Shown piece by piece: positions 1,131-64,000 of a stretch of DNA of 64,000 nt; positions within the stretch are counted from its first letter, which is position 1, and every line of letters starts with the position of its first letter. Origin of the DNA: Tetramitus jugosus (taxonomy: Eukaryota > Protista > Heterolobosea); assembly GCA_937625935.1 (NCBI GenBank), contig OW569384.1, positions 186,001-250,000 on the forward strand, read 5' to 3'. The translations under genes and the position numbers were made by a program. Under the pieces are notes generated by a model. It was not told where the DNA came from and did no database searches. It was given only the letters and a program-made list of their open reading frames with translations.

Positions 1131-1594
1131 AATTGGATAGTGTGAATACCTTTGAATGTTCGATGCCGACGTGAGAGCTAGGAAGAGTATGGTTTAGTTT
1201 TCATATGGTTTCAAACAGGCCTGTTTGGCATCAGATAAACTGTTTCCCACAATTCAAATTTTGATTTTTTCCGCTATAAATGGAATGATCAAAGTTGTTC
1301 GACCATTCCACCGCACAATCTGGCGGACCAAATTCTTGTATGGAAATTTCAGTCAACCTTGAATCTAACTTAGAAATCTCTAATTGTCAACATCCTTTCG
1401 CAGTTATTTGATTTCGGAGAATGTCGCCCGGTCAACATCGGTTTTCAGCTGGAATGCAATCCTGTTCATGCACTTCTGAAGCGAAAACTCATGTTCCAGG
1501 GTTCGGAGAACATGCAACACAAGTCCCATTATAAAAACAAAAACAAGCAGGTTGTCCAACCAATCACAAGAAAAAAAACAGAAAGAGCATCATC

Positions 1595-2818
1595 ATGGTC
1601 ACTACTGGTAAGCCAACATTCAAAAAGTATCCATCCATCGAAAATCACTACCGGGAAGAGTTCATGGAACAAGTGTACGAGAGCATCCAACACTTTCATA
1701 GCAAGAACGAAGAGAATCAATTACCAAGACAAGATATCGAATGGGTTTCATCTGAAAAGGTCCACGGATCAAACTTTAGCTTTATTGTGAGGCGCTCTGA
1801 TGAAGACGCAGACAATGTGTCGATTTCTGTTGGAAAACGTTCGGGTATTGTTGCTCCTGATGATAAATTCTTTCCGCAAGCAAGAGCCGCCGTACAGAGA
1901 AAATACGCTGGTGCTTGTAAGAGAGCTTTCGAGGTGTTGAGCCAAGAGTTTGAGTCTGATGACTCGAAACCAATTCGTGTGGAACAAGTGGTTGTTTTTG
2001 GTGAGTTGTTTGGAGGTCAATACAAGACAAAGATTACTGGCCGTGTTCCAATCCAAAAGGGTGTTTATTACTGTGAGGAGTTTGATTTTTATGCGTTTGA
2101 TGTATATGTATCGGGTGTTCCCAAGGTTGCTCGCGAAGAGTCAGAGGAGACTGAAGAAGGAAATTTGGAAGGAGATGGATCATCATCCAGATCTGGAGTA
2201 TGGTTGACTTTTGATGAGGCAGTCCAGTTGTTTGAAAAGGTAGGATTTCATGTCTATTGTAAACCGTTGGCCAGAGGAAAGCTGGCTGACGTGTTGGCCG
2301 TTGCTGTTGCGTTCAACACAACTGTGCCTGCCACATTCTATCCTCACTTGCCTCCTATGGAAGATGGAACAAATATTTGTGAAGGTGTTGTGATTAAGCC
2401 CGCGAATGCGGTATTGCGTCTGCGCTCAGGAGACAGAATTTCCATCAAGAAGAAGAATCCACATTTTATGGAGGTGTCAGCACCAAAGCCACGCACCTCC
2501 AGCGGCACTCAAGAAGGTCCTAAAGGTCCTGTGTTTGAGACAGAAGAAGGAAGGATGGCATATGAGGATTGCCAGCGCTACATTACACCACAACGTCTCA
2601 ACAATTGCGAATCAAAGATTGGACACTTGCACAGGTCCACAGTCGGAAGGTTGATTGGTGCGTTGTCAAAGGATGCCCTAGAAGACTTTATCAAAGACAA
2701 TCAAACCTTGTGGGATTCTGTCAAACGGGAAGATCAGAAGTTAATTACGAAGAAACTCTCAGTGCTCGCACAGGAGATGGTCAAGACTCAAATGAAACAA
2801 CTCAACGCAGCAGTCTAA
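1595..2818 (+). CDS. ATP-dependent RNA ligase, Rnl2 family (T4 Rnl2 / RNA-editing ligase-like)
   Basis: N-terminal FKKYPSIENHY. Nucleotidyltransferase motif I EKVHGSNFS, III FGELFGG, IIIa FYAFDV, IV EGVVIKP, V SIKKKN. Rnl2-specific C-domain YITPQRLNNCESKIG...SKDALEDF. Confidence 0.88.
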   Translation: MVTTGKPTFKKYPSIENHYREEFMEQVYESIQHFHSKNEENQLPRQDIEWVSSEKVHGSNFSFIVRRSDEDADNVSISVGKRSGIVAPDDKFFPQARAAVQRKYAGACKRAFEVLSQEFESDDSKPIRVEQVVVFGELFGGQYKTKITGRVPIQKGVYYCEEFDFYAFDVYVSGVPKVAREESEETEEGNLEGDGSSSRSGVWLTFDEAVQLFEKVGFHVYCKPLARGKLADVLAVAVAFNTTVPATFYPHLPPMEDGTNICEGVVIKPANAVLRLRSGDRISIKKKNPHFMEVSAPKPRTSSGTQEGPKGPVFETEEGRMAYEDCQRYITPQRLNNCESKIGHLHRSTVGRLIGALSKDALEDFIKDNQTLWDSVKREDQKLITKKLSVLAQEMVKTQMKQLNAAV

Positions 2819-4021: not shown

Positions 4022-4809
4022 ATGTCGTTCACAAGTGTTAAAGAAATTGGAATCGTTCTTGATATGAACTCAAATTATCGGAGAACGATGGAAGATGGCT
4101 ACTGTTTTGTCGACTGTTTCAGGGGTAGACAAAGGACGCATTGTTTGCTGTTTTCGATGGTCATTTTGGTAGAGCGGTTGTTGATATCTTAGAAAGTACT
4201 TTCCATGTGGAATTGGCCAAAGCTCTGGATGCATCTGGTGAGGGAACTCCGGACAAAATTCAAGAGGCTATCGCAGCTGCATATACAAAGACAGATCAGA
4301 GAACCAAAGGAGTGGAAGGTGGCTCAACATGTGTGAGTTGCCTAGTGATTTCTGATCCAGACAACTCTCGAGTATTGTATACTGCCAATTGTGGAGATTG
4401 CAGGGGAGTGTTGTATATGGGTGACACAGTACACATTCTGACCTATGATCATAAGGGAACAGACCCTAACGAGATTAACAGAGTTATAGATGCAGGAGGT
4501 AGAATCAAACGTGGACGTGTGAACACACAGTTGGCTGTCACAAGAGCATTTGGAAATCACAAATGGAAGCAATATGTTATCAGTGAGCCTTTCCAGACCA
4601 AAAGTTCATTGAATAGTAGTTTCTCACTATTGATTCTTGCAAGTGATGGTTTGTGGGATGTCATTGGGAATGAAGAAGCCGTTGACTTCTGTAAAGTGAA
4701 ACTCCAAGCCCAACGATTGACTGCTCAAGAGTGTGCACAGGGACTGACTGACTTGGCCAAAGAGAAGAGATCCAATGATAACATTACTGTCATTGTTGTG
4801 GTATTGTGA
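4022..4809 (+). CDS. PP2C/PPM protein phosphatase, split by an apparent 1-nt frameshift near 4131-4133
   Basis: RRTMED lies in the frame starting at ATG 4022. LFAVFDGH, GST, ANCGDCR, LAVTRAFG, SDGLWD and DNITV lie in the frame starting at 4141. Adding one A to the caaag run at 4130-4134 fuses them (FRGRQKDALFAVFDGH). Confidence 0.8.
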
Positions 4810-5879: not shown

Positions 5880-8800
5880 ATGTCATCACCACAAGATAAA
5901 GTCATTGATGATTTGATTGCTGGTCTTATTCGGATCACCACATCACTCGTAAGTGTGAAAAAACAATAATTCTCACTTGCTCTCTCTCTCTTTTTTTGTG
6001 TGTGTTGTTCATTGACATGATGTTGAAAAAAAAAGATGGAAAGCTAACACATAGCGCTCTACAATTTTTTTTGTAACGTTTCACTCTCTTTGATGACAAC
6101 ACAAAAAACACATATTTATTCATTTATTAGCTTCCATTTTCTTCCAAAATTACTACGACGAGCAGAATTGGCGACTTGAGACAAAATGCCAATTCGTTGA
6201 TCAAGCTCTCCAAATACAAATTGGACAGAGTGGTCGAAGGCCTACTGCACCTGCAGGCAGAGTTGATCAAGAGCTATGAAAACGCAAAGCAATTAGAATC
6301 TGTATCACTATCCAGCAACTCACACAACTCACTCACATCGAGCATCTCCAGTCCCACAGGTGCATCTTCACCGAGCAGCAGCACCGGTGGCAACGCAGGC
6401 AGTCACAATAGCATCAACGCCAACAACCTAAACAATAGCACCAGTAACAACAGTGATCGCAACAGCAGCAACAACAGTGCTAACAGCAGCAGCAGCAACA
6501 GCTCAAACTCTGGCAACAGTGCAACCAATAGTGGTTCAGGATTGTTTGACGATCCACAGAACGAAGACGTTTTGCACTCGAGATACATTCGATCCAAAAT
6601 CATTGTGTTCCAACTGTTTGTCAAGACATTGTCCGCTGCGATCAATCATGACAAGTTTGACCTTCGATTCGAAAACGATTTCTTGAATGAGAGTCTCTAC
6701 GGCACAGGCAACAAGGACGATGAAGACGATGGTGCACAACAAGAAACACTAGAGCAGTTGCTCAAGAAGCAAGCAGAGGAGAAGATGAGTCAACACACGA
6801 TTCAAATCTCCACCACTGGCGACGTGGATCAACTCCAGTTCGATACACAGTCCGAAATGTCCGACAGCACGAATCCGCATGCAAGCATAGACCTGACTGG
6901 TTCATTGATGCGCGCTGCTAGCAGTGGAAATTTGTTTACTGCCACGTTGGGCAACCAGAATGCGCAACAGCAGCAACATGCTGATGGAGACAAGTTTGAT
7001 GAGAGCAGATTGCCAAAGTTGGACCCTTCATTGACTCAGTCTTTGTTGAGATACATTATCGACACTTTGTGGCCATCGTCCGATAACACGAGAGACAAGG
7101 ACAAGGGCTATTTGAATGAGAGAGTGTTGAAGCACTTGGCTGCCAGAGCACTATTTAAGTTGTCTATTCTGAGCTTTGATGTCGTCTTTGCCAAGGTTGA
7201 GGACTTTTTCAAGAACATGAAGCAGGACGAAGTCAGTATTCCAATCTACAGCATGCTCGAGTACATTAACTTTGATCGAACAAAGACTTCACGACTGATT
7301 AGCTTGCTCGTTGACTCTTCTTCCAAATTCAAGAAGAATGCAATTGTCGCACTGGCGTATCCATTGCGCAAAGCCATCTGGAACTATATTCTCAATTTCC
7401 CTCAACAGTTCATATCTGACTGCGCAACAAAGAGTCCAATGCCAGGCAATCCAATCAAACTGTTCCAGGTCATTGCTGAGAAGAAGCCAAAGAAGACACC
7501 ATCGATTTGGCCACTGCAAACAATGATTCTGTTATTGTGCCCACAGGCATTGTCCGACGTCATCATGTTGATCAAGACTGGAAAGACAGATAACAATTAC
7601 AAGAAGGAGAGAAAGTTTTTGGAGTCTCTGATCAAGACACTGAAGACCAAGGGTGAACGTGTTGATTATGCTGTGATGTGCTTTGTTGATTTATACAAGG
7701 CATCCACCTATCTAGAAAAGGGCGTTCCTCACAATCTGAGACTGTTGATTGCCCAAGTTCAAAATATTGTTCTCGATCGTCTCTTCAAGAATGTTGAAAG
7801 TCCAGTGAGAACACTGGACGGTAAGATTGATGTGACTCTGATGGTCGATTTCTTAGTTAGTGCCTACAGAATCAATCCCCGATATGTTGTATCATACATT
7901 TTCCCATACTGTCTAAGAGGCACTGGCCTTCATAAGCTCGTGTTTGCCAAGGGTATGCTCCAATTGGCACAGGAAGGTGCTGTTTTGCCATTCCATCCAA
8001 CTCTCTCGCAATGCTTTGCACACATTGCCAAACCTGTTCGTCTGCTTTTCCAAGACTTGTTGAACGAAGAGAATCAACAACAGACCTTGAGAGCCAGTCA
8101 ACAGAAAGAAGCTGCCAGTAATCCAAAGGCCAAAAAGCATCAAAAGGATGCCGAACCAAGCTACTGTACAGAAACCTTGTTGAATTTGTTGGCAGTGTTC
8201 TACACTGAGCCTAGACTCGTTTTGGAGAACACTTCTGGTGCCAGTCATATTACAGATATGATGTATTTGTTCGCATCTTTGACTACTTGTCTTGGTGGAG
8301 CAAACAATGTTCAGATTCAAAATCAAGCTTACAGACTGCTCGAAAAGTTCTTCGATGTCAGATATATCATTCAGTGGTTGCCTGATGATATCGTCACTGG
8401 TTTCACTGAAATTTCATCATCTGTCATGGTCAAGCTCGCTTTCATTCTTTTGAATGATGTGAATATCAAGGGCAATGACATTAAGTCCATTCTGAGTTTG
8501 TTGAAGGAAATTACTAGTTCCGCCAACAAGTTTATTGAACAACACAGAGACAATATCAATGAAGCTCACTTGAAGGGTCGTAAGCGTATCGAAGCCATCG
8601 GAGGTATTGAAAGTGCACTCTTGGTCATGTTGTGTAGCACAGAACATGATGTGTTGACAACTGCGGCCTCCTGCTTTGGTGACTTGTGTAACCAGATTGA
8701 TATTTTGGGTGCCAAGGAAGTCAAGGGTCACAACTCCATTGCTCTCAATTATGAGTTGTACAGAAAGATTGCATCGCTACCATCAAACATCAAGAACTCC

Positions 8801-11800
8801 CAGGATTTGAGATCTGAGATCTTCAAGTTGTTGCGTCGTGTGGAAGTCAAGTCAAAGGCCAATATTGCTGCCTTCCTTGATGTCAATCCTCGATGGAAGA
8901 ACTACACGAAGAATATTATTAGTGCCCAATTCAGAATGAGAGACAGCAAGGATGATTCTGCTGGTAGTTTGAAGGTCATGCAGAAGATGTGGGTCAACTA
9001 CACCACTTTCCTCTGTTCCATCTGTGGTTGCTTGCTCAGCAGTGATAACTCATATGTGAAGAGTCGTCTCAATACGAGAGAAATGACTGAGGATCTTGTC
9101 AAGGAATTAATGCCTCTGTTGATCGCTGATGATCCTGAGATGAGAACTGCCGTTGCTAACATTATTGGTTTGCATCTATCTCCTGCTGCTTATGGTCTCT
9201 TGTTCCACAACTTGCACTCCATTATCGGCAAATTCTTTGGTGAGGAGGGAGCTGTCAAGGTGTCTGCAACATCTACACTCTATGTCGACATGATCATGAC
9301 CATCATGAAGATTATTATTATGCAAGCAAAGGAGAATTCTGCTGATTTGGCGTTGGCCAATTTCGAGACTTTGATTTATTCATTCGTCCAATATTGCTCG
9401 CAACTGGTTCTGAATGCTGAAAACGATTTCATCAAATGCAAGCTCTGCATGATGATTGATCTCGTTCTCGAGAAGAGAGAGTACATCACATTCAGTAATG
9501 AGATTCAATTCAAATTCCAGGTGTTGCGATCGATTGTCGAATGGACCAGCGACTTCGCCTCCAAATACAAGGATAACAATGGTAAGAAGTCTGACACTGT
9601 TGATCCATCCATTACTCTTGATGTCTTGTGTATGAAGGTCATTGCTGGATTGCTCAAGAATTTGAATCTTGCAAAGCTGAAGAGAGAAAAGGGATCTGGA
9701 AAGGAGAGAAACGAAGCAAACAAGAAGGAATTCTTGAAATACTTCCAATTTTTGTCTAGAAATCTATTGAAGTCTAAGGATTCTATGAACAGTGAAGCAT
9801 CCCGAAAGTTCCGTGAGTTCAACATCTTGGCTCTCGGTAACTTGCTCGAATCCAACATGAGTTTCGGTTTGGAACACTTTATGAAGATGGCTTACGACGA
9901 AGATCAAGAAACTCGATCTGCTTTCTTGTCCGTGCTCACCAAGATCATGAAACAGGGTATCCAATTGGAATCCGAAACATTTACCGAACCTCAAGAGAAG
10001 TATGAGAAATTGATGAAGCTGTTAATGGATAATAATCTTGAGATGGTGTTCTTCATCTTGAAGTCTGTCTCTGTGTCTGAACAGGATGACCTATGTAAGG
10101 CATTTGTTAAGTTGTTTGCCGCTCAGGGAGATATCATCAAGCTGTTGAAGACTGCTATTGATCACGAGGTCGAACAAACAATCCAAGCAAGTACTCTGTT
10201 CAGAGCAAATAGTTCCGCCAGTAAGATGTTGACATCTTTCTGTCAAATGTATGGCAAGGACTACATGAACGAGGTATTGTCTTCTCTAGTGAACGGCATT
10301 ATTGGCAACTCATCCAACTATGAAATTGATCCTTCTAAAGTATCCAAGGATGATGACATTGAGAAGAATTTGGCCAACTTGATGGAAATGAGTCAAAACT
10401 TCCTCGATTCCATCTTTAACTCTGTTGAATCTTGCCCAATGCCAATCAGACTCATCTGTAACTATTTAGGTTCAGCTGTTGAGGCTAAGTTCCCTTCGAA
10501 CACGCCTGATGAAGAGAATCCAGATGAGGCAGAGGAGAAGGGAAGCGAAGAAGACGGTCAAACCAATGGACACAAGAGAAAGTATGTTGCTATTGGAGGT
10601 TTGTTGTTCTTGCGTTTCTTGAACCCTGCTATTGTGGCTCCAAAGGCATACGGTATCGTTACTGATCAACCAAATCCTCAAGCCAGCAGATGCTTGTTGT
10701 TGATCTCCAAGCTCGTCCAGAATATTGCCAATGGTGTCAAGTTTGGTGGTAAGCAAGCATATAAGGAGGCATTTATGAAGCCATTGGATCCATTTGTCAT
10801 CTTGAATTTCACTTTGTCCAGAAATTTCTATGACAAGATTGCTGATGTACCTCTCGATACTCAAATCCAAGAGTCACTTCCAATTGAAGAAGAAGCCAGA
10901 ATTCAAAACTTCCTCGTTTTGCACAGATTCTTGTTCAACAACATTGATAAGATGCAGTTGAAAGCTCAGGAGAACGAAAGAGAAAGTGTCGAAAAATTAG
11001 CTTCTCTCGTGTTAGAATTGGGAAGACCTCCTGAGATTGAGAAGTTGATAACAAGCTCTGCCCCAGCGCACGGAGAGTTCTCCAATCCTGTGTTTGACAA
11101 CTTTATGAATCAGATGAAAAACAGAAACATTGATATGTCCGCTATTGAAGAGAAGCAATTCTTCTTTAAGAGTGGTGTGTCTAAATCTCAAAAACCAGTT
11201 GTCTACTTCATCTGTAGAAAGTTCGAAGGTATTGACAATGATGAAAGTCATGAGTTGGCAATGTATCACGTCTTGAGCACTTTGCAGAGTGTTTTCGTGA
11301 AGCCATTTGAAATTCTGGTGGACTGTACCGAGTTCAGAGAAGATCATGGTTTGCAATTGGCTCACTTGTCCAAGTTCTTCAAGTTCTTACCAGCCGGAGC
11401 CAAGAAGAACACCTCTCGAATTATTGTGTATAATCCAAACAGCTTCTTGAAGGATTCGTTCTCAAAGACTATTCAAGGCAAACTGCTGACTCGTAAGAGC
11501 ATTAAGAAACTCGCTCTCTGTTCTTCTATGAAGGAACTCAAGGAGTATATTGATGAGAAGAATTTGGCTCTGCCTGAAGATTCATACAGCTTTGAAAAGG
11601 ATGTTCAAACTACCTTCTCCCCTGCCTGGGTCGTTGCATCCCATAACCACATCAAGGAGGCATCCGTCAAGCTCAGCAGCAACAAGGTCTGTATCATGAC
11701 CAAGAAGGACACAATCTTTGGATTGACTGCCAGATTGGTTGAGTTTATCGATATCACAAAGATCAGTGCAAGAATCGAGTACAACCAAAATGATAACAGC

Positions 11801-14281
11801 TTGGAACAAGTCGTCATTGAGTATGACTCTCCTCCAAGTAAGATCGTGTTGAGAACTGAGGCCAACAAGCAATTGGTGTTGAATATTAATGCTATTATTG
11901 CTAGATTGAACAATGATAACGCCTTGACCCAATCTATGAGTGACAACAGCGCCCAGGATCATAATCAAATGAGACAAGAAGATATCCCTGGATCTATTCT
12001 TAATATGTGTTTCTTGAATCTTGAATCACGATTCTCAAAGACTAGAAGTGAAGCATACAACTTGCTCGCCGCTCTCTCGGAACAATTCGAACTGCCTATT
12101 ACAATGTTTGAAGCAGATAACATGTGTGTTCCTCACAATACAAGTGACCTTGTGGTTGCCTTGTCCGAGCAGGTTGCACGTGCAAAGCCAATTTTCACTG
12201 CTACATTCCTTAGCGAGAGTTTGAGAGGTTTCAACAAGGTTTCATTGCCTTACAAGTTCTTGTGTCTAAAGTACATGAAGCCATGGATCTCAAACCTGAC
12301 TCCTGCATACGAGTTGGCAAAGAAGAATGGCGACACCACCATGGTCGAAAGAATTATTGGATGGTTCCCAGAGTTGACTAACTCTACTGTGATGTTCCAT
12401 GACGTCTGTCCAGCTATTCTCAGTGATATTTGGGGAGAGATCAGCAAGGATGCCACATTGGTTCGCATTGCCGTCGACTGTATCTTGGAGGCTTCAATCA
12501 AGGCCGGTGTTGGTACAACTGACAGTGAAACACTGAACGATTTGATCGTTACATTGGCCAGTTGCAATTGTGCAGATCTCGTGGTTGATAACATTATCGA
12601 CTATACTCTGAACACTATCAACACGGAAATTGTTGATGCTGATGAACCTTTGGAGAAGAATGGACCATGGATGAAGATTATTCATTGCTGCAGATTCATG
12701 CTCATGTTGTCTTTCCAGAACAGAATCAACGTCATTGACAACGCACCAGCTATTTTCTACATCATTTCCCTGACCATTGGTCGTGGATCCAACTTTGTTA
12801 GATCTACCATGCACGCATTGACCCTCAATGTTGTTCACTCTCTTGCTACTGCCTTGAAATTCAACAGAGAACAAAAGAAGTTGATGGCATCTCATTTGGA
12901 CACCTTGACCAGTCCGCAGTTCAAGTCCATGTTCTTGGGCAGCTCTCAAGAATCTGATCCATTCTCTACCAAGACCTACTCAAGCCAAGGCAAGACTGAA
13001 CCAACAATGAAGATTGGAAATGTAGAAGTCCTCACTCACTACTTCATTGAAGTTATGAAGACTTGCTCATCTGTTAACTCCGATGTCGCAAGATGGCCAA
13101 TCGAGTTGTCCGCCCTCTACAAGTCACAGAGTGTGCTATTCAGTCCAATTATGCTGCCAAGACTTTTGATTGCTTATGGTGTGCTTATCAAGCCAGGTCA
13201 AGAAGCTCAAGATACATTGAACTTTGTGATGGAATGTTTGCTTGACAGCTTTGGCAAGTACTCACCGCACAGAAATGATTTGGCAATTGCTTCTCTGTTG
13301 TGCCTGCGCCAATACTGCTTCAAGTTGTCACCTGATGATCCAGTGTTGAAGAAGGTACTGGTCATCCCAATTATTCTCTTGGCTGCAGCCGATCCAGTCT
13401 TGTTCCCAGATGTGATTCGCGTGTTGGATAACGCCATTACTGCCATCAGTGAATCAAAGACATTCAAAGAATGTACTAGTATGGGACAATACTTCAATCT
13501 GCACTGCAGAGATGAGAAGACTGACCTAATCATCACCAGATTCGAAAAGATTTCTGGTATTAGCTTCAAGGCTAATTTCTCATTCGCTCTCTTGACACTG
13601 TTGATCAAGGGCTTGACCATTGAATCAACCAAGAGATGCACAACTGAGATTTGCTCGACTCTCGTTGCCATCAGTACCAAGTTGTCCAACAACGTGTCTG
13701 AGATTCTTGGTTTCTTGTGTGCCTTGATCCCTGAACGCTATGAGGACATCTCCAAGTTGATGGGTGTTGAGAATTACAATATGTTGACTGAGGACAACTT
13801 TGCTCACCCATACAGTGCTCTATTGTTTGTCCGATGTCTGTTGACTGTTGCTCAGAACATGCAAGATGAGACCAGTTCTCCTCTCGCCGATCGCCCTGAA
13901 GCATCCATCTACAAGACACTGAGAGAGGCATTCAAGAGAGTTCCAGAAGTGTTTGAGCCATTCTACCCAGACTTCATGCCTCGTGTCGTCCAGGTGTACA
14001 CTCAAACATCTAGTTCTCAAATTGCCGAAGTATCACTCGCTCTTATCAACACCATGATGACTGAGACTGGTGAAGCGTTCTCCGTCAAGGACAACCTCGA
14101 CAGATTGAAGGACATTTCCTTCACTGGTATCAACAGAGCTGGTTCCTTCAGAATGATCAGTGACCAGACAAGAACCGAGTGCTTCACCATGTTGATCGAC
14201 TTTGTCAAGAGCTCTTTCGATGTCTCTGAAAAGAAACAACCACCAAAGAAGGCCCAAGAAGTCGCTTCTCCTTCCAAATAA
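5880..14281 (+). CDS. NF1: Neurofibromin (NF1-type RasGAP with Sec14/CRAL-TRIO and PH-like modules); exons 5880-5948 and 6131-14281
   Basis: The phase-0 intron 5949-6130 (GTAAGT...TAG) joins MSSPQDKVIDDLIAGLIRITTSL to the 2701-aa ORF. NF1-like N-terminus (LIKLSKYKL), GAP arginine finger TLFRANS, FLRFLNPAIVAP, KLVQNIAN, Sec14-like KPFEILVDCT, and GSILNMCFLNL...RSEAYNLL. Confidence 0.93.
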
Positions 14282-27525: not shown

Positions 27526-27598
27526 GCCGTCGTAGCTCAGCTGGAAGAGCACTGGACTTCTAATCCAGTGGTCGCGGGTTCGAGTCCCGTCGTCGGTA
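27526..27598 (+). tRNA. tRNA-Arg(UCU), intronless
   Basis: Cloverleaf: D-arm GCTC/GAGC with loop AGCTGGAA, anticodon stem CTGGA/TCCAG with loop CTTCTAA, T-arm GCGGG-TTCGAGT-CCCGT, acceptor GCCGTCG/CGTCGGT+A. T-runs follow downstream (Pol III terminator). Confidence 0.93.
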
Positions 27599-27663
27599 CT
27601 TTTGTCAACTTTTTTCAGATCTTGAAACAACAAAAACATCCAAACTAATACACAAACAACTCA

Positions 27664-31476: not shown

Positions 31477-31873
31477 AAAAGGTCCAGCTCCATCCAACCG
31501 CAATTACTTTGTGGTGTTCACTTTTCTCGTTTGCTTGCCATGCAGTTTTTGGTGCCTGACAAATCAAAATACTGGCATGGTGGTGAAAAAATAGTGGTGC
31601 TTTTGGTTATAGAAGTTGAACGAATAGGAATTGGCTTTCACTTGAAACAACTACCTGCAACTACCATCTCCACGGCCGAGTCATCCAAAATAACTTGTAG
31701 TAATACAACAAAAGCTTACAAGGTCGAAATACAAAGATTTGAAGTCCCAGAAAGGAAACTGATTTTCCCTACGGAAGGAAGAACAGGAAGGGAGCCTTGA
31801 TAACAGTTTCGAGATTCTAATAATTAATTCAAAAACAAGATAATCCACACCTCCTTTTCGACAATACACAGGA

Positions 31874-32977
31874 ATGACATCGATACCTGTGCCACAACCG
31901 CTTGATCTTATCAGCAAGCTTTTCAATAATCAGGATTACTCTGATTGTGCTGTTCAATTTCCGAAAAGAAAGCTCCTTCTTCACAAGAACATTCTCTGTG
32001 CCCACAGCAACTTCTTCAGGGCGTGGTTTGCACAAGTAACAAAGGAGACTAGAGAAGGAGTGATAAAGATTGATGATGACGAAAATTTAATGGAAGAGTT
32101 GCTCAAGAGTCTGTACACTGGAAAAATTGAAATAGAGAAGCAGAGTGACAATGTTCCCATGATTTTGTTGGCTCAAAAGTATCAATTAACTTCTTTGATA
32201 CCGGCCCTCGTGGATACTCTGGTGAACAACATGGATGATAGCAATGTTTTGCACTGCACAGTCTTGAATCTGGAAGATGACCTATTTCAAGGCGTGCGAC
32301 AGAAGATGTCAATTCTCTTACGCGACTCAGCTGATGCTATCCTCAGAGGAGACTCCTATTTGACTCTCAATAGTGGACAATTGCTCTCAGTTCTCAGTGT
32401 GTTGGTCAATGAGAAGAATACTCTCGAAGCTTTTTATGCCATCCATTCTTGGATAAAGCTGGACGAGAAGAATAGAGGCTCCAAGAGTGTGGCTCTCATG
32501 GATGTGGTTACAAAAATGTCAAAGGTTCCCCACCAAACCGCTGTAACAGTAGCCTTCGATCCTCAGTATTGTGAGTACGGCACCGAATTTTCACAAAACA
32601 ACAAGAGAATCATCAAGTTCGAGGGTAAAACCTGTGTTGCCTATGGAACGAAGTGCGACACCTTTTCTGTCCGATTGATCAGAAATTGTCGTCACTTGAA
32701 AGTTGGAATGGCCCCAAGGACCAATGGACGTCGAAGGGAAGGATTCTACTTTGATGTAAAGACAGGAAAGTTTGATGCACCTGAGAGTAGATTCCGTCGT
32801 TCCAGACGGATGGGACACGGAGATGGAATGGTCATTCATTTCTCATTGAAGAATGGAGAGCTGAATCTGTTAGTGAATGGACAATTCTTGGATGTTGGTT
32901 TTCGCGATCTCTCTGGTTTTGATTTGTATCCTTCTTTTATTTTATCGGATGACGGATGCGAGTTCGAGTTCTTGTAA
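31874..32977 (+). CDS. BTB/POZ + SPRY/NHR-like domain protein (tandem copy 1)
   Basis: LFNNQDYSDC...LHKNILCAHSNFFRAWF...LLKSLYTG. Beta-rich C-terminus with VGMAP and LYPSF. Confidence 0.88.
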   Translation: MTSIPVPQPLDLISKLFNNQDYSDCAVQFPKRKLLLHKNILCAHSNFFRAWFAQVTKETREGVIKIDDDENLMEELLKSLYTGKIEIEKQSDNVPMILLAQKYQLTSLIPALVDTLVNNMDDSNVLHCTVLNLEDDLFQGVRQKMSILLRDSADAILRGDSYLTLNSGQLLSVLSVLVNEKNTLEAFYAIHSWIKLDEKNRGSKSVALMDVVTKMSKVPHQTAVTVAFDPQYCEYGTEFSQNNKRIIKFEGKTCVAYGTKCDTFSVRLIRNCRHLKVGMAPRTNGRRREGFYFDVKTGKFDAPESRFRRSRRMGHGDGMVIHFSLKNGELNLLVNGQFLDVGFRDLSGFDLYPSFILSDDGCEFEFL

Positions 32978-33177
32978 GATTTACAATTTTTCATTAAATA
33001 ATTGTTTTGAAAGAATCTGTTGAAGAGAATATAATTCCACGGAACAATTCGAAGTTTCACTAAGAAACGGAGCAATGAGGATATCAAGAGATAATGGACA
33101 TGTCCGGAAAAATTGATTTTCACTCTGCCGGCAGAAAAACGTCGTTGGAACTTCCTTCCGTCAAAAAAAGAAGTAGA

Positions 33178-34293
33178 ATGGAGATCAATGTCCCACCACC
33201 ACTCAATCAAATCAGTAAACTGTTCAATAATCAAGATTACTCTGATTGCACCGTTCAATTATCGAAAAGAAGAACACTTTACCTGAACAAGAGTATCCTC
33301 TGCATTCACAGTGACTTCTTCCGAGCGTGTTTTGCACATGGTATGAAGGAAGCAAGAGAAGGAGTGATTTACATGGATGATGGAGACGATGCGGAGTTGA
33401 TGGAAGCGTTGCTCAAGAGTCTTTATACTGGTAAGATTGAAATGAAGAACCAAAAAGACATTGCTCTCATGGTCGTACTGGCTGAAAAGTATCAATTGAA
33501 TACATTGATGCCAGCGCTCCTGGATACTTTGTTAAAGAACATGGATGAAGGCAATGTGTTGCACTGTGCAATGTTAAATCTAGAAAATGAACAGTTTCAA
33601 GCAGTGAAACAAAAGATGTCAAGAATCTTAAGTGAATCAGCCGATGCGATTCTCAGAGGAGACTCCTATTTGACTCTCACTTTTGACCAATGGCTCTCAG
33701 TTCTCAGTGTGTTGGTCACTGAGAAAAATCTTCTCGAAGCAGTAGAAGCATTACTTATGTGGATCAAATTTGACGAGAAAAATAGAGGGTCACACAGTCC
33801 GGAACTCATGTATGCGGTGACACAGGCTGCTCGTATCGATGCGAAGACCCCAAAGTTTGATCCAAAATTTTGTGGATCCAAAGCAAAACTTTCACATGGT
33901 AACAAGCATGTCATCAAATCTGGTGCACAAGGTTTTAACTGTGCTGTACTTGCAACAAAGTGTGACAACTTCTCCATACGATTGCTCAAAAATTGTGGCC
34001 GATTGAGAGTAGGAATGGCACCAAGGAAATTGGACAGAGAAGGGGCAAATTACAACAAACGTGGAGTGTTCTATGACTGCGGCACAAACTCCATTTTCGG
34101 GTCAAAAACTCTCAGACATGATCTTGCACTGGACTTCGCAGTCCAACAAGAGGGAAGAATTGAAGTTTCACTGAATGGCCAAACAATGACTATCTGGGGG
34201 TTTGGTTGGGTTTTTGAAACCCGTGTTCCAGCCATTGATTTGTATCCTGCTTTCCTTTTGTATGATGATGGATGCGAGTTTGAAATCGTGTAA
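33178..34293 (+). CDS. BTB/POZ + SPRY/NHR-like domain protein (tandem copy 2)
   Basis: Collinear paralog of 31874-32977. The ATG at 33178 aligns with the copy-1 start; an upstream in-frame ATG at 33094 is possible. Confidence 0.88.
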   Translation: MEINVPPPLNQISKLFNNQDYSDCTVQLSKRRTLYLNKSILCIHSDFFRACFAHGMKEAREGVIYMDDGDDAELMEALLKSLYTGKIEMKNQKDIALMVVLAEKYQLNTLMPALLDTLLKNMDEGNVLHCAMLNLENEQFQAVKQKMSRILSESADAILRGDSYLTLTFDQWLSVLSVLVTEKNLLEAVEALLMWIKFDEKNRGSHSPELMYAVTQAARIDAKTPKFDPKFCGSKAKLSHGNKHVIKSGAQGFNCAVLATKCDNFSIRLLKNCGRLRVGMAPRKLDREGANYNKRGVFYDCGTNSIFGSKTLRHDLALDFAVQQEGRIEVSLNGQTMTIWGFGWVFETRVPAIDLYPAFLLYDDGCEFEIV

Positions 34294-47144: not shown

Positions 47145-48497
47145 TTACAGCATTTTCAGGAACTTGTCATAGGGGACTTTGTCATCACCAGTCAGTGTGA
47201 TCATCTTTTGCAACTCTTCCTTCACTTTACATCGCTTGTACACTGAAATATCGGGACACTTTGTGAACAGGGCAGTAATCATCTTGAGTCGTTCGTCTTG
47301 ACCATCACGATAGAAAGCTCGCTTACCAGTATAGATGATGGTGTACTTATGAATCGGGAGAGACCCATTCTCATCCTTGATCAGCAACATCGGACCAAGA
47401 GAATTGTGAAATGTGTTCAGTAACTGCACTACAAACGCATGGTCAGCCTGTATCAAGTAGTGTACTATCGTTGGAGTTGGGTATTTGTCATCTAAATACG
47501 TTCCATAACCTTCATTCAACAGGAATTGAACAACTTTTGAACCATTCTTCCATCCATCATACCAATACCTCATGGCCCCTGATAGCATAGGCAACCTACT
47601 TCTTGTTCGAAGCTCAACTCCACAAGAAAGAAGAAACTGTAGCCTTGTTAATGTGTCTTCAGCTGGTTCTTTCTGGTATCTATCATCTATTATATTGCCA
47701 AAAGAATGTTTGCCTTCATAGAAAGAACTGTAGCGACTAAAGCATTTCTTTCTGTAATCAAGTACGAGTGGTTTCAGAGCATTGAAGCAATGTTTGGATG
47801 CCCAATGGGCAACAACCAATTCTATTCCTTCATCGTTATCCAGAATGAAGTTTGTTCCATATTGTTTCGTTAATCTTAAGATGCCATCAATCATTTGATC
47901 CATATCATATGGGTTATTGAGGAGGATCTCTTCCAAGAATTTCCAATCTCTGAAAAAGATTGATCGATCATGCCTTAACAGGAGCTCAATAACATCAAGA
48001 GCACCAGCTCTGTGTGTTGCATAGGGTTTAATTCTTTTCTGGTGAGCCACTAACCAATATTTGGAAGCCTCAGATGCAATCAATATCTCACAAAGTTCAT
48101 GATTTTCACTGATTAGTGCTTGAACAAATCTATCAGCACAAAAATTCTGATAAATGACCCAATATTCATCAATGCACTTCTTCTTAAAGTAAGAAGTTAA
48201 CAGAGTTTCGTCATCACCGAACTTCTTCTTACTCACTTCAGTGGTTGACTTTGTGAACATGCACAAACAACTCTTCCACAAGCGACTCATTCTCTGGTGA
48301 TTCAACAGTTCGTACCATTGCTTCGATGTCATGGACAACGCGAGAAGACTTCTCATGTTCTCAATCAGTTGTTTTTCTGTCAAATGAGTTTTGCTGCTGT
48401 GATGATAATATGTCGATTGCTTTGTAATTGAGGGCGTGTAAAAGAACACAAAGTTGTTGAGGATGGACAACTGAATCTCTCTTGGCAATTCATTCAT
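47145..48497 (-). CDS. F-box protein with degenerate ankyrin-like helical C-terminus (tandem copy A)
   Basis: MNELPREIQLSILNNF...LALSMTSKQWYEL. Ankyrin-like LQFLLSCG, VVQFLLNEG, KDENGSLPIH. Confidence 0.78.
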   Translation of the reverse strand: MNELPREIQLSILNNFVFFYTPSITKQSTYYHHSSKTHLTEKQLIENMRSLLALSMTSKQWYELLNHQRMSRLWKSCLCMFTKSTTEVSKKKFGDDETLLTSYFKKKCIDEYWVIYQNFCADRFVQALISENHELCEILIASEASKYWLVAHQKRIKPYATHRAGALDVIELLLRHDRSIFFRDWKFLEEILLNNPYDMDQMIDGILRLTKQYGTNFILDNDEGIELVVAHWASKHCFNALKPLVLDYRKKCFSRYSSFYEGKHSFGNIIDDRYQKEPAEDTLTRLQFLLSCGVELRTRSRLPMLSGAMRYWYDGWKNGSKVVQFLLNEGYGTYLDDKYPTPTIVHYLIQADHAFVVQLLNTFHNSLGPMLLIKDENGSLPIHKYTIIYTGKRAFYRDGQDERLKMITALFTKCPDISVYKRCKVKEELQKMITLTGDDKVPYDKFLKML

Positions 48498-49196
48498 TTT
48501 TTAATGTTGTTGAGTTCGATGTTTTTCAATGAGAGAGAATGAATTGAGCAATTTTATGTATCGATCTGAACTTCAAGCCTGACTTGCATCGTCCGAATGA
48601 CAGCTTGTCAACAATGTTGACAAAAAAAATTTCTTTGTAAAAAGGTTTGGCGCTCCACTATGGGTTCATCTGGACGGAATCAACTACTACTTGACTGCTC
48701 CTTTGAAACTGGTCAACAATCAGTTGGAATCAAAGAACTTTAAGCCGATTTACTACTTGCGAACAGCTCTTTGGCGCAAAGAAATACTCTTATTCTCAAG
48801 GGAGTAGTCGGATTGAACAAGACTCCTCTAACTGTTCAACTCAACTGTGAGGGTGCACATAGGTATCAGACACCTCTATTGACTGTCATCAAAGAGCTTG
48901 TAAGTCTGGATATGACCGAACGCATTATCGAAGGAAGCATTCAATCGAGAAAGGAATGCTGCTCACAGTTTTGGGCTGTCACCAGTTGACTACAATGAGC
49001 GTTATCGTTCCAGCTTGACTATGAATTGCAGTGGATTCAGTCAGTATTGGCGTACAAGTATCAAAATGATATTTCATCCTCTTGTTTCATCAGATTATGC
49101 CTTTTCCTCTGCTGGACTCAGCAATCTGGGTTGACCAGAAGTGTGAAAACACTAATCTCAAAGAATAAAGGTGACAAGGCAATGACCTTATACTGT

Positions 49197-50546
49197 TTAC
49201 AGCATTTTCAGGAACTTATCATATGGAGTCTTGTCATCACCAGTCAGTGCGATCATCTTTTTCAACTCTTCCTTCACTTTACCTCGCTTGTACACTGAAA
49301 TAGCGGGACACTTTGTGAACAGTGTGGTAATCATCTTGAGTCGTTGTTCTGGACCATTACGAGAGAAAGCTCGCTTACCAGTACAGATGATGGTGTATTT
49401 CTGGATGGGGAGATGCCCATTCCCATCCTTGATCAGCAGCATGGGGCCAAGAGAATTGTGAAATGTGTCCAGTACTCTCGCTACAAGCTCATCGCCTAAC
49501 TCAATCAAGTAGTGTACTATCGTTGGAGGTAAAAATTTGTCATCTAAATACATTCCACATCCTTCGTTCAACAGGAATTGAACAACTATTGAACCATTCT
49601 TCCATCCATTTCCCCAAAGTTGCATGGCTCGTGCTAGCATAGACAACGTATCTCTTGTTCGAAGCTCAACTCCACACGCAACAAGAAACTGTAGACTTGC
49701 TAATGTTTCTTCAGCTGTTTCTTTCTGGTATCTTATCTCTATTAAACTACCAAACGGGTATGTTCTTTCATAAACGTTGCGTTGACTGGGGTTCTTTTTT
49801 CTGTGCTCAAGTATTATTGGTTTCAGAACATTGAAGCAATGTTTGGATCCCCAATGGACAACAACCAATTCTATTCCTTCATCGTTGTGCATAATGAAAT
49901 CTGTTCCATATTGTTTAGTTAACTCTAAGATGCCATCAATAATTGGATCCATATCGTGCGGATTGTGTTGGATAATAGCTTCCAATAATCTCCAATCTTT
50001 GAAAAAGAATGAGCTATCATGTTTCAATAGAAGCGCTATAAAGTCGAGAGCAGTAGTTCTGTGTGTTGCATAGGGTTTAATTCCGTGCTTGTGAGCCACT
50101 AACCATTTTGTGGAAGCCTCTGATGATATCAATTTCTCGCAAAGTTCATGATTTCCACTGCTCAACCCTTCAACAAATCTATCAGCACAAATCTTTTGAT
50201 GAATGACCCAATATTCATCAATGCACCACTTCTTAAAGTAAGAAGTTAACAGAGTTTCGTCATCACCGAACTTCTTCTTACTCACTTCAGTGGTTGACTT
50301 TGTGAACATGCACAAACAACTCTTCCACAAGCGACTCATTCTCTGGTGATTCAACAGTTCATACCATTGCTTCGATGTCATGGACAACGCGAGAAGACTT
50401 CTCATGTTCTCAATCAGTTGTTTTTCTGTCAAACAAGTTTTGCTGCTGTGATGATAATATGTCGATTGTTTTGTAATTGAAGGTGTGTAAAAGAACACAA
50501 AGTTGTTGAGGATGGACAACTGAATCTCTCTTGGCAATTCATTCAT
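49197..50546 (-). CDS. F-box protein with degenerate ankyrin-like helical C-terminus (tandem copy B)
   Basis: Full-length collinear paralog of 47145-48497. Confidence 0.78.
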   Translation of the reverse strand: MNELPREIQLSILNNFVFFYTPSITKQSTYYHHSSKTCLTEKQLIENMRSLLALSMTSKQWYELLNHQRMSRLWKSCLCMFTKSTTEVSKKKFGDDETLLTSYFKKWCIDEYWVIHQKICADRFVEGLSSGNHELCEKLISSEASTKWLVAHKHGIKPYATHRTTALDFIALLLKHDSSFFFKDWRLLEAIIQHNPHDMDPIIDGILELTKQYGTDFIMHNDEGIELVVVHWGSKHCFNVLKPIILEHRKKNPSQRNVYERTYPFGSLIEIRYQKETAEETLASLQFLVACGVELRTRDTLSMLARAMQLWGNGWKNGSIVVQFLLNEGCGMYLDDKFLPPTIVHYLIELGDELVARVLDTFHNSLGPMLLIKDGNGHLPIQKYTIICTGKRAFSRNGPEQRLKMITTLFTKCPAISVYKRGKVKEELKKMIALTGDDKTPYDKFLKML

Positions 50547-50735
50547 TTTTCTTGTTCATGAAACTTGTTTGATTTGAACTTTAAAGGCTATTCTGAACTT
50601 CCATAGAAGGAAACTAGTGCAATCAGGATAATCTGCAGAATTAATGAAAAAACAATACAGTGGACCAGATCTCTGTATTGGTTTATTGTAAGAATCAAGT
50701 GCCAAAAAAGAATGCCGTTTCCTTGATAAAAAATG

Positions 50736-54268: not shown

Positions 54269-54705
54269 ATGACATCACAAAACAAAACGTAAGAAGATCA
54301 CATCTCATTTTTCTCCACCAACAACATCAAAAAAAAAGCTTTGACTCTTACTGACACACTTGATCAACACATCACACACCATCACACAGTTTATTGGAAA
54401 GCACAGCACTAGAGCACGCCAAACGATTGACACCCATCTTGGAAGAACACTTGAAAAATGTTGAAGAAAATCGTGTCCAGCGAAAAGAAGAAGAAAAACA
54501 ACAACAGGCCGAAAACAGAAGGAATAGAGCAGCAGTAGAAGCAGCAGAGCACGAATTAAAAAAGAGCAAGAAAAATTATACGTTCATAATGGTGGCTGCC
54601 GCTGTGGCACTGTTGGCCTTCCTGTTTTGGAATTTTAAGAGTGAATTGATTCATTTGCAACAAAAGTATCAACAACAGCAGCAGGCACAGCAGAAAGCTC
54701 TATAA
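54269..54705 (+). CDS. Small coiled-coil protein with a near-C-terminal TM; exons 54269-54288 and 54390-54705
   Basis: The phase-2 intron 54289-54389 (GTAAGA...TACTGAC...CAG) supplies an ATG for the 54394 ORF. TM segment FIMVAAAVALLAFLFW. Confidence 0.7.
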
Positions 54706-61175: not shown

Positions 61176-64000
61176 ATGTCGAAGAAGCAAACCAAAATGT
61201 CTTTTTCTGATTTTCAGAAATCGACACTTCCACCGACTGCTTCTGGTTGGGCGCCACTTCCCACTTCAAAGCAACAAGCACCAGCCAACAAATCATCATC
61301 ATCAACTGGTGGTGGTAATAATAATAAGAAGGCAGCAGCAGCCACTTCTGCAAATAAGCAAGGTAATAACAAAGCAAACAACAAGTCTCAACCGCAAGCG
61401 AATTCTCCTACTGTCGCATCATCATCATCAGCAACAGCAACAGCAGACAAGAAGAATGCAGCACCAAAAGCAGCAGAGACTCAAAATGCGCCTCCTCAAC
61501 AGCAACAACAGCAGCAAAAGCAACAAAACAATAACAACAAGCAACAAAAGCAACAACAACAACAAAAACAATCATCAACACCTGCTGCTTCTACCACTGC
61601 ACCTACTGCAACAACAACAACAACTGCAGCAGCACCACCAACAGCAGCAGCAGCTCAACAACAAGCTCCACCTAGTGTCAATGGAACCAACAATCCTCCA
61701 CTAAAGAAGAAGGAAACTTCAAAAAATGACAACAAAAACAAGAACAAAAAATCATCATCAGATCAAAAGAAAAAGTCAAGCAGTGCAGGAGGAGGAGACA
61801 ATCAACAACAACAGGACCAACAATCAGAAAAGGTGGAACTGTTTTATCGTATGCCAAAGGACGTTGTGCCTATTGCTGAATACTTGAAGCAAAAATTGGT
61901 CGTTGTTCCGTTGGATGGTGATACTGAACAACAACAACAACAACAATTGGATCAACCCATCATCAACTATTTGAGTTGTGTGTTGCACGGTCAGAATGAT
62001 GTCGGTACAAGAACCAGTGAGGCAGAAGTCATTCAATTGTTGTCCAATTTTGCACATGAGACACGTGTTTGCAACAGTAAGCAAACTGCATCTGAACTCG
62101 CTCTGTCCATTCTCAATGATTTGTACGAGCAGAACTTGGTCAAGAAACCAGAGGCAGAAGGTCCATCATCAGGCAGCAAGGTCAAGGAACTCACTGAAGC
62201 CATCAGTCTCGGTAGACAATTCGAAGAACAACAAAAGCAGAACGAGATGATGATGGAAGTGGCCACTGGAACATCTGTGCCTTCTGCCAGCTCCATCAAC
62301 TTTAATGAACAGTTGGATTGGGAGAAGAGAATGGCAAAGTTGAGAGCAGAGAAGCAAGCCAAGCGTGATGCAAAGGAAAGAGATGCCAAGATGGTTGAAT
62401 ACGAAGAGTATTTGAAGAGAAGAGGCTTGTCCAATTCGAGAGGTATTGTCAAGATGCACAATGCTGATCAAGTCACTGGTACGAGAGACGTTGTGTTGAG
62501 AAATATTTCAGTCTCTGTTGGTAACTCTGAATTGTTGACTGATTCTGACTTTATGTTGCACTGTGGACATCGTTATGGTTTGATTGGTAGAAACGGTGTG
62601 GGAAAGGTTTGTAGGCTCTACCTCTTGATTTTATCATTATTTTTTTTTCGTTGTCTCGCGTACTGACTCTTACACCAATGTACACAAAATAGACCACCTT
62701 GTTGCGACACTTTGTGGAGAGAGATTTGGTCGGTATTCCACCATATTTGCAAATTTTGCACATTGAACAGGAAGTGACGGGAGATGAGACAACTGCAATC
62801 GACTCTGTGTTGAAGACAGATGTGGAACGATTGTCATTGTTGGCAGAGGAGAAGAAGCTCTTGGAAGGCAACAACGAAGATGCCGATGAGAGATTGACCG
62901 AGATTTATGCACGTATGGATGAGATTGATGGCCATAGTGCTGAATCGAGAGCAGCAGCCATCTTGAGTGGTCTGCAGTTCACTCCAGAGATGCAAAACCA
63001 AAAAACAAAGGACTTTTCTGGTGGTTGGAGAATGCGTATCGCCTTGGCACGTGCTCTGTTCGTTGAGCCTGATATTCTGTTGCTTGATGAACCTACCAAT
63101 CACTTGGATTTGGCTGCTGTTCTCTGGCTGGAGAACTATTTGACAAAGTGGAAGAAGACACTGGTTGTTGTTTCTCACGCCCGTTCCTTCTTGAACAATG
63201 TTGTGACCGACATTGTTCACTTCCATGAAAAGCAACTGCACTACTACAGAGGAGATTACAATACATTTGAAAAGACGAGACTTGATTCACTCAAGTTGCA
63301 ACAAAAGACATTTGAAGCACAGGAGAAACAAAGGAAACACATTCAACAATTTATTGATCGGTTTAGATACAAGACTGCCACTGCAAAGATGGTTCAATCG
63401 CGTATCAAAATGCTAGAGAAGATAGAGTTTGTTGCTGCAGTTGCAGAAGATCCTACATTCACCTTTGCTATACCGTCTCCAGAGCCTGAAGCACCACCTT
63501 ATCTCCAGGCTTGCGATGTCACATTCGGCTTCTCCGAACACAAGATTTTGTTCAAGAAATTGAACTTTAATTTGGATATGGACTCTCGGATTGCCCTCGT
63601 TGGTCCTAACGGTGCGGGAAAGGTTTGTATCTCTATATGACAATTCTTTTTGTGTGTTCTTGTTCAGTCGTCATTCATACACAGTGTACTAACTCTTATG
63701 CATCTATACAAATAGACTACTTTCCTTAATGTGTTGATGGGCGATCTGAAACCACTTGATGGCTACGTGAACCTGAACCGGAAACTGAGAATTGCTCGAT
63801 TCAATCAGCATCATATTGAGCAACTCGACTTGAGACTGACTCCATTGGAATATATGCAGGGCAAGTTCCCACAATCCGATCCACAGGCATTGAGAGGTCA
63901 TCTCGGTGGTCTAGGATTGAGTGGAACTTTGGCTACTCAGCCAATTTACACACTGTCTGGAGGTCAGAAGAGCAGAGTGTCATTCTCAGAGCTAACATTC
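61176..64000 (+). CDS. ABCF-subfamily ATPase (ABCF3/GCN20-like), truncated by the window end; exons 61176-62606, 62693-63622, 63716->64000
   Basis: RYGLIGRNGVGK|TT, FSGGWRMR, LLLDEPTNHLD, VVSH. Second NBD: ALVGPNGAGK|TT, FNQHH, LSGGQKSRV. No TM segments. Long Q/N/A-rich N-terminus. Confidence 0.93.
62607..62692 (+). other. Spliceosomal intron 1 of the ABCF gene (phase 0, in Walker A of NBD1)
   Basis: GTTTGT donor, TACTGAC branch, ATAG acceptor. Removal restores GNGVGKTT-type reading (GRNGVGKTTLL). Confidence 0.9.
63623..63715 (+). other. Spliceosomal intron 2 of the ABCF gene (phase 0, in Walker A of NBD2)
   Basis: GTTTGT donor, TACTAAC branch, ATAG acceptor. Removal restores GPNGAGKTTFL. 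Confidence 0.9.

Follow-up and report, generated by a model that had tools for sequence, protein, structure and literature searches.

The gene and its two introns

The window considered here, meaning the whole of a 64,000-nucleotide (nt) stretch of the heterolobosean Tetramitus jugosus (assembly GCA_937625935.1, contig OW569384.1, positions 186,001 to 250,000 of the forward strand), closes with an ABCF3-like gene in which each of two ABC domains is interrupted by an intron at the same point of its Walker A motif. The gene, the final one of the window, starts on the plus strand at 61176 and continues past the edge. Its exon 1 (61176..62606, 477 codons, with RNA contigs over the 3' part) leads from the ATG through a low-complexity N-terminus into the start of the first nucleotide-binding domain (NBD1), as far as the Walker A sequence GRNGVGK. 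After intron 1 (62607..62692, 86 nt) exon 2 (62693..63622, 310 codons) supplies the remainder of NBD1, the ABC_tran_Xtn linker and the start of the second domain (NBD2), as far as GPNGAGK; after intron 2 (63623..63715, 93 nt) exon 3 (63716..64000) holds the remaining visible part of NBD2 and runs beyond the window. Both introns are GT-AG, phase 0, begin GTTTGT and lie between the GK and the TT of their Walker A motifs. Their branch-like motifs are TACTGAC at 62661 and TACTAAC at 63687, respectively 25 and 22 nt from the 3' end. With both introns spliced out there is a single open frame of 882 amino acids (aa) up to the window edge. The preliminary description, made from the letters of the window without database searches, had pointed to twin phase-0 introns at G-K/T-T in both domains (the slash here and below marks the exon junction), and in this it is confirmed.

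That the introns are real and are spliced is a matter of observation. RNA contigs of X1 and X2, from separate studies and at least 99% identical to the window, skip exactly 86 and 93 nt, with GT..AG ends, so that the RNA check proposed at the outset has been answered for both junctions. This support comes from assembled contigs of RNA libraries, not raw reads, in a comparison of region 62300-64000 with four runs, of which X1 and X2 are registered as RNA; in runs X19 and X20 the contigs end before both sites and are uninformative on the introns. Misannotation, or a protein read through these segments, was considered and is rejected because each segment contains stop codons when unspliced and each is skipped in the RNA contigs. 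The GT-AG removal, the CTRAC-type branch motif near the 3' end (the branch point being predicted) and donors that are not of U12 type are those of U2-type spliceosomal introns.

The protein is ordinary and only the gene structure is unusual. Pfam domain PF00005 (ABC_tran) is found in exon 2 and again in exon 3, there below the curated cut-off, with PF12848 (ABC_tran_Xtn) between the two; two nucleotide-binding domains with an ABC_tran_Xtn linker are what eukaryotic ABCF3/GCN20-type proteins have. The best matches of exon 2 carry the ABCF3 name and are followed by proteins of Acrasis kona (79%), Willaertia (75%) and Naegleria fowleri (74%). In a quick maximum-likelihood tree of 40 proteins, where the window row filled 41% of the columns, the gene groups with P0001, P0002 and P0122 from JGI (SH-aLRT 100) as sister to the Acrasis group (99). 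These comparisons make it an ABCF3-like gene and its owner a heterolobosean close to the acrasids.

Could the shared position simply have been inherited when one domain became two? The duplication of the domain predates spliceosomal introns. Two-NBD ABCFs are already present in bacteria, and those such as YheS and EttA align over the same region, so the shared intron position does not come from the domain duplication, a conclusion already drawn in the preliminary description; this candidate is rejected. Nor do the available insertion sites make the match trivial. The visible coding sequence (2646 nt) has 75 MAG/R sites and 207 AG/ sites, and GGAAAG/AC occurs only twice in it; with so few candidate sites, matched positions are unlikely in one gene even with a proto-splice bias.

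Relatives with both sites continuous

In the open reading frame (ORF) P0001, 91% identical and on a 35.6-kb JGI contig, there is no insertion at either Walker A. The ORFs P0003 and P0123 (7.3-kb and 35.9-kb contigs) and the N. fowleri ORF P0007 (14.9-kb Logan/ENA contig) are likewise continuous through both Walker A sites, while P0124 and P0125 (6.2 kb), which cover NBD2 only, are continuous there. Among the top 120 matches of each of two protein searches no fragment from a close relative is broken at either site. These ORFs are proxies; that they were called from unspliced DNA is judged from where they originate and from the N-termini of P0123, P0124 and P0125, which look like read-through. 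If they are unspliced, neither the closest relative nor the Acrasis group nor Naegleria has an intron at either site, and gain on the terminal branch would explain this more simply than a history of three double losses. Both introns are thus probably recent gains, made after the split from the closest sampled relatives, and the recent gain that had been proposed from the sequence of the window finds support in the continuity of these ORFs. Separately, the Acrasis-like ABCF3 ORFs P0124 and P0125 have foreign-looking residues before IDAHSAE, which suggests an intron at another position in that lineage.

A. kona is credited with 1-2 introns in about half of its genes, and Naegleria gruberi with 0.7 introns per gene (PMC11589745). 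Neither in that article nor in its searchable supplements is the exon structure of the A. kona ortholog, AKO1_005406, to be found. Scans of prokaryote genomes and of viral contigs with a lineage-specific stretch found no true relative. A metagenome scan with exon 2 yielded 80 loci at 40-48% identity, a result swamped by distant ABCFs, and in those loci all 159 of the 159 Walker A motifs on plus strands continue as GK[ST].

Likeness of the introns and of their exon flanks

The genome looks intron-poor, most ORFs of the window being uninterrupted, and just eight introns beyond the twins could be placed. They form the background for what follows and are predictions placed by hand from the sequence, each restoring a long frame; for one (54289-54389) the frame is uncertain, and one has no branch motif. 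Against this background the twins stand apart in several respects. The donor GTTTGT is found in 2/2 twins and 0/8 of the others, all eight of which start GTA, much as the preliminary description had it when it set GTTTGTA donors against GTA elsewhere. TCTTA comes after the branch in both twins, and AC in 7/7 of the others with a branch, directly after CTRAC or CTCAC. The distance from branch to intron end, 22-25 nt in the twins, is the shortest in the window, the others having 29-137 nt. As an observation on the background itself, the introns at 5949, 37476, 38936 and 41749 have their branch-like motif unusually distant from the acceptor, at 48-137 nt. A full-text literature search found no paper on a GTTTGT splice-site consensus in Naegleria.

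Beyond these signals the likeness is modest. Scored in three ways against dinucleotide shuffles, the whole introns of the twins come 2nd, 2nd and 5th among 45 pairs. When donor, branch and acceptor are held fixed, only 28-38 of 2000 of the pair's own shuffles reach its score, but its place among 36 pairs is 5th, 4th and 5th. Counted without gaps from anchored positions, 19 of 36 bases agree, and among 35 other pairs there is one at 21 and one at 19. A 13-mer that the twins share around the branch does not exceed in length the repeats that arise by chance in the same 2 kb. The post-branch segment, picked after inspection and compared with a small background, is alike to a degree reached by 37 of 20000 shuffles and by 79 of 10000 real substrings of other introns (p ~0.002-0.008), its score exceeding that of every one of 56 control pairs. 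If the count starts three bases ahead of the branch and runs to the intron end, 26 positions match, and of the 6 that differ 5 are transitions and 1 is a transversion. The preliminary description had claimed similarity beyond the splice consensus: this holds for the post-branch segment but not for the part before the branch, and its own counter-case, that the twins be no more alike than other intron pairs, is partly realized within the window by ranks of 2-5. The case for the introns being related is therefore weaker than was claimed, and a common origin for them is about an even bet, not something established.

The near-identity first reported for the exon flanks is borne out. The NBD1 flank (62584..62606) and its NBD2 counterpart (63600..63622) match at 14/15 nt upstream of the junction, and downstream the match is 6/8 nt. 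Taken across the exon-donor junction the repeat is 22 nt, the longest with at most one mismatch in 62001-64000, the next being 14 nt. All five upstream codons of identical residues (G, N, G, G, K) are the same in both domains, for which the chance expectation is 0.015, or 0.025 without Lys, from 11,081 window codons; elsewhere in the two domains 14/33 such codons are identical, with 12.1 expected. None of the three downstream codons (T, T, L) is identical. The upstream identity fits either a one-sided conversion tract or a template that existed beforehand, and is not decisive.

Walker A as a recurrent site of interruption

The start of NBD2 is visible in 71 of the top 120 exon-2 matches: 67 continue GK[ST], many of these being spliced annotations, 3 stop after GK-V and 1 breaks earlier. 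One of the three GK-V breakers is ABCF3-like, with 82-83% identity to a protein of Spumella vulgaris. Both of the others are ABCF2-like, and their closest comparison is a EukProt protein labelled in the same style, at 74-83% identity; all three are on these grounds called chrysophyte-like. A protein 87% identical to one GK-V breaker is continuous through the NBD2 site. In a wider set of 391 proteins, where read-through ORFs are only a proxy for introns, 4/205 NBD2 motifs break as GK-V, all of them chrysophyte-like; the NBD1 motifs have no such break in 302, a count to which many spliced, and so uninformative, annotations contribute. It is possible that the chrysophyte-like breaks are a second case of parallel gain or of transfer between paralogs; the chrysophyte-like ABCF3/ABCF2 ORFs broken at this same NBD2 GK/T site are P0198, P0214, P0236, P0248 and P0385.

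For NBD1 the best 120 of 955 short matches, a redundant list, comprise 105 with GK[ST], none with GK-V and 15 with other breaks, which a phase-1 intron placed 5 nt upstream, within the Gly codon, would account for. Read-throughs that fit a phase-1 intron in the last Gly codon of Walker A are seen in P0229, P0249 and P0251 (NBD2, some ABCF3) and in 15 of P0265-P0384 (NBD1, other ABCF2/3). The NBD2 position thus appears to serve as an intron site in one distant lineage or more, with frequent interruptions of the motif close by. The preliminary description had allowed that sharing of both positions by distant eukaryotes would undo a recent gain; such sharing was encountered for NBD2, in the chrysophyte-like proteins, and for NBD1 in 0/302 motifs.

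Origin of the paired introns

The explanation we favor, at a probability of roughly 0.5, is that one domain received its intron as a copy of the other's, in a within-gene version of the known but rare process of intron transfer. A first intron would have been gained at the AAG/ site of one P-loop. The other P-loop lies 1,016 nt away, and a break close to it would then have been repaired from its look-alike by gene conversion or templated repair, or, by an alternative route, the excised intron would have been reverse-spliced into the look-alike junction. The copies would since have drifted, with likeness remaining mainly at the donor and from branch to acceptor. As to direction, from NBD2 to NBD1 is a weak guess, and gene conversion and reverse splicing are indistinguishable with the present data. 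The more specific proposition, that copying was guided by only ~22-30 nt of Walker A likeness between domains that separated before eukaryotes and inside one gene, we hold at a little under even odds.

Transfer of introns between paralogs is a defined category, with three events listed in a 2012 review (PMC3443670) and the same three in a 2022 supplement, Supplementary Note 1 of PMC9120149: Chironomus globins, ABC transporter paralogs of Aspergillus and Mycosphaerella metalloproteases, with ectopic gene conversion as the process (PMC3443670, PMC9120149). The Tetramitus introns share with those cases an identical position and phase in homologous coding sequence, and one of the known cases is also in ABC genes; the other marks of such transfer, related introns and absence from outgroups, are here only partly indicated, the first by the post-branch segment and the second by the continuous ORFs of relatives. 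They differ in that the two sites are in two domains of one gene, ~1 kb apart, with ~22-30 nt of DNA likeness, that the likeness of the introns is modest and partial, and that the domains diverged before eukaryotes. Transposition by reverse splicing would likewise leave an exact copy, at a site in a transcript or R-loop that resembles a splice junction; it has left no direct sign here and is inseparable from DNA-level copying. Two laboratory intron transpositions in yeast are cited in PMC10996645, as is Lee and Stevens 2016 on transposition by reverse splicing. A full-text search, outside of which most subscription papers lie so that it is no proof of absence, turned up neither a description of these introns nor any account of transfer between ABC domains within a gene, and the accessible text of PMC3737163 and of PMC11139335 has no case of within-gene transfer.

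Several considerations weigh against copying. Unrelated intron pairs of the window equal or exceed the whole-intron similarity of the twins, and the segment before the branch is alike only at chance level (5667/20000 shuffles reach its score; ~0.28); the likeness after the branch, as mentioned, comes from a segment chosen on inspection. The sequence ACAAATAG, at the end of the twins, also terminates one unrelated intron of the window. No background intron (0/8) is preceded by an exon ending in AG. A strong exonic AG tolerates a weaker intronic donor, and the shared GTTTGT is therefore possible without common descent. The absence of identity in the downstream codons leaves 3' homology that is thin for classical gene conversion, and upstream identity of the kind seen is not confined to genes with introns: intron-free frames with two Walker A motifs reach 5/5 identical codons in 10/78 cases and 14/15 nt in 11/78, all of the latter at 66-71% GC. 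That the relatives' sites are empty is judged from ORFs and not from intronless ortholog DNA, and distant eukaryotes of chrysophyte-like kind have the NBD2 site interrupted. The copied intron of the preliminary description survives as the single best explanation, though without a whole-intron similarity above that of the best unrelated pairs of the window.

Much of this would be expected had the introns been gained independently at AAG/ proto-splice sites in a motif that attracts introns, a scenario that includes an old NBD2 intron joined by a new one in NBD1, and in which the likeness would stem from splicing signals, base composition and a donor relaxed after exonic AAG. The unexceptional whole-intron similarity, the chance-level pre-branch part, the 3/71 GK-V stops at NBD2 and the 15 of 120 listed NBD1 fragments that break 5 nt away are all to its credit, and a scan across very many windows will meet some positional coincidences. 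[quoted passage not shown] What such gains have in common with the present case (PMC4202315; PMC9120149) is position, phase 0 and AAG/ context, and Walker A is interrupted elsewhere too. Yet two rare gains at exactly paired sites are needed in an intron-poor genome, together with a shared unusual donor, shared post-branch bases, similar length and differences rich in transitions; GK-V breaks are found in 0/302 NBD1 motifs, many of them in uninformative spliced annotations; and by the Daphnia rule (PMC4202315) parallel gains are unlike beyond the first 5 and last 3 bases, which the post-branch likeness here exceeds (p 0.002-0.008). We regard independent gain as unlikely, without thinking it far-fetched.

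Both introns might instead have come from outside, from an introner-like mobile intron (short terminal inverted repeats, AG target duplication) or an intron of another ABC or P-loop gene. Like introners (10.1101/2022.06.06.494994; PMC12130899), they are short, probably recent and in part mutually similar, with AG at both junctions and a possible short inverted repeat in intron 2. The AG/GT...AG arrangement fits introners that carry a donor and take the acceptor from target duplication (10.1101/2022.06.06.494994), although an AG repeat alone cannot be called a target duplication, and among the ten introns complementarity between the two ends is greatest in the twins: intron 2 has 7 nt (25/5000 shuffles), intron 1 has 5 nt (370/5000) and the others have at most 4. 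One score of 0.005 among 10 introns is weak, however, the introns fold no better than shuffles (z 0.90 and -0.60), and random insertion would not choose paired sites. Unlike introners, they are two copies only, in paralogous sequence, at low identity; a third copy is absent from the 64-kb window, leaving the earlier idea of a mobile intron family directed at P-loops without support, and the twin-intron pattern has 0 matches in viral contigs. Neither intron matched any Rfam family. Naegleria and Discoba go unnamed in the main text of two introner surveys (PMC12130899; 10.1101/2022.06.06.494994; the preprint's supplements aside), surveys that require at least 4 copies in different paralogy groups and so exclude paralogous pairs. 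An outside donor is accordingly improbable in our estimation. Least credible by far is that both positions are ancient, present in early eukaryotes and retained here, having disappeared from Naegleria, from the Acrasis group and from the lineage of P0001. Intron loss does dominate eukaryote history (PMC9120149) and a distant lineage does have its NBD2 site interrupted, but at least three parallel double losses would be needed on the tree, the NBD1 phase-0 break is seen nowhere else (0/302 motifs), and the residual likeness between the introns is left without explanation.

Other features of the window

A gene of 2,739 aa at 5881-14281 (+), which we take to be neurofibromin-like, has one 5' intron (5949-6130) and then a single 8.1-kb exon; within that intron a branch-like motif is closely followed by an AG at ~6054, a possible alternative acceptor. 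On the minus strand the HPPD gene has an intron immediately after its ATG (56325-56217). In the PP2C gene at 4022-4809 (+) there is a change of frame near 4124-4130, with the N-terminal motif in the other frame and no room for an intron, and the Pfam match begins at profile position 33; an assembly error or a pseudogene would account for this. Two tandem paralogs of ~450 aa at 47145-50555 (-), separated by ~2,050 nt and with a DNA identity of 82-87%, have an N-terminus that is presumably F-box-like, and two adjoining related ORFs of 377 and 404 aa at 31844-34293 (+) have what we assume to be the look of BTB domains. A 427-aa ORF at 1535-2818 (+) has an EKVHGSNF motif, in our assumption like that of Rnl2-type RNA ligases, and a tRNA-Arg(TCT) gene lies at 27526-27599 (+).

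Implications

Intron transfer is among the least documented routes of intron gain, and its three listed cases are all between separate genes (PMC3443670, PMC9120149). Should the likeness of the Tetramitus introns be due to chance, a modest point would remain, namely that the ABCF Walker A is a repeated site of intron gain. If copying is true, very short homology at a conserved motif suffices for it, and such motifs could pass introns between ancient repeats; intron positions shared between the domains of a protein would then be no proof that the introns predate the duplication.

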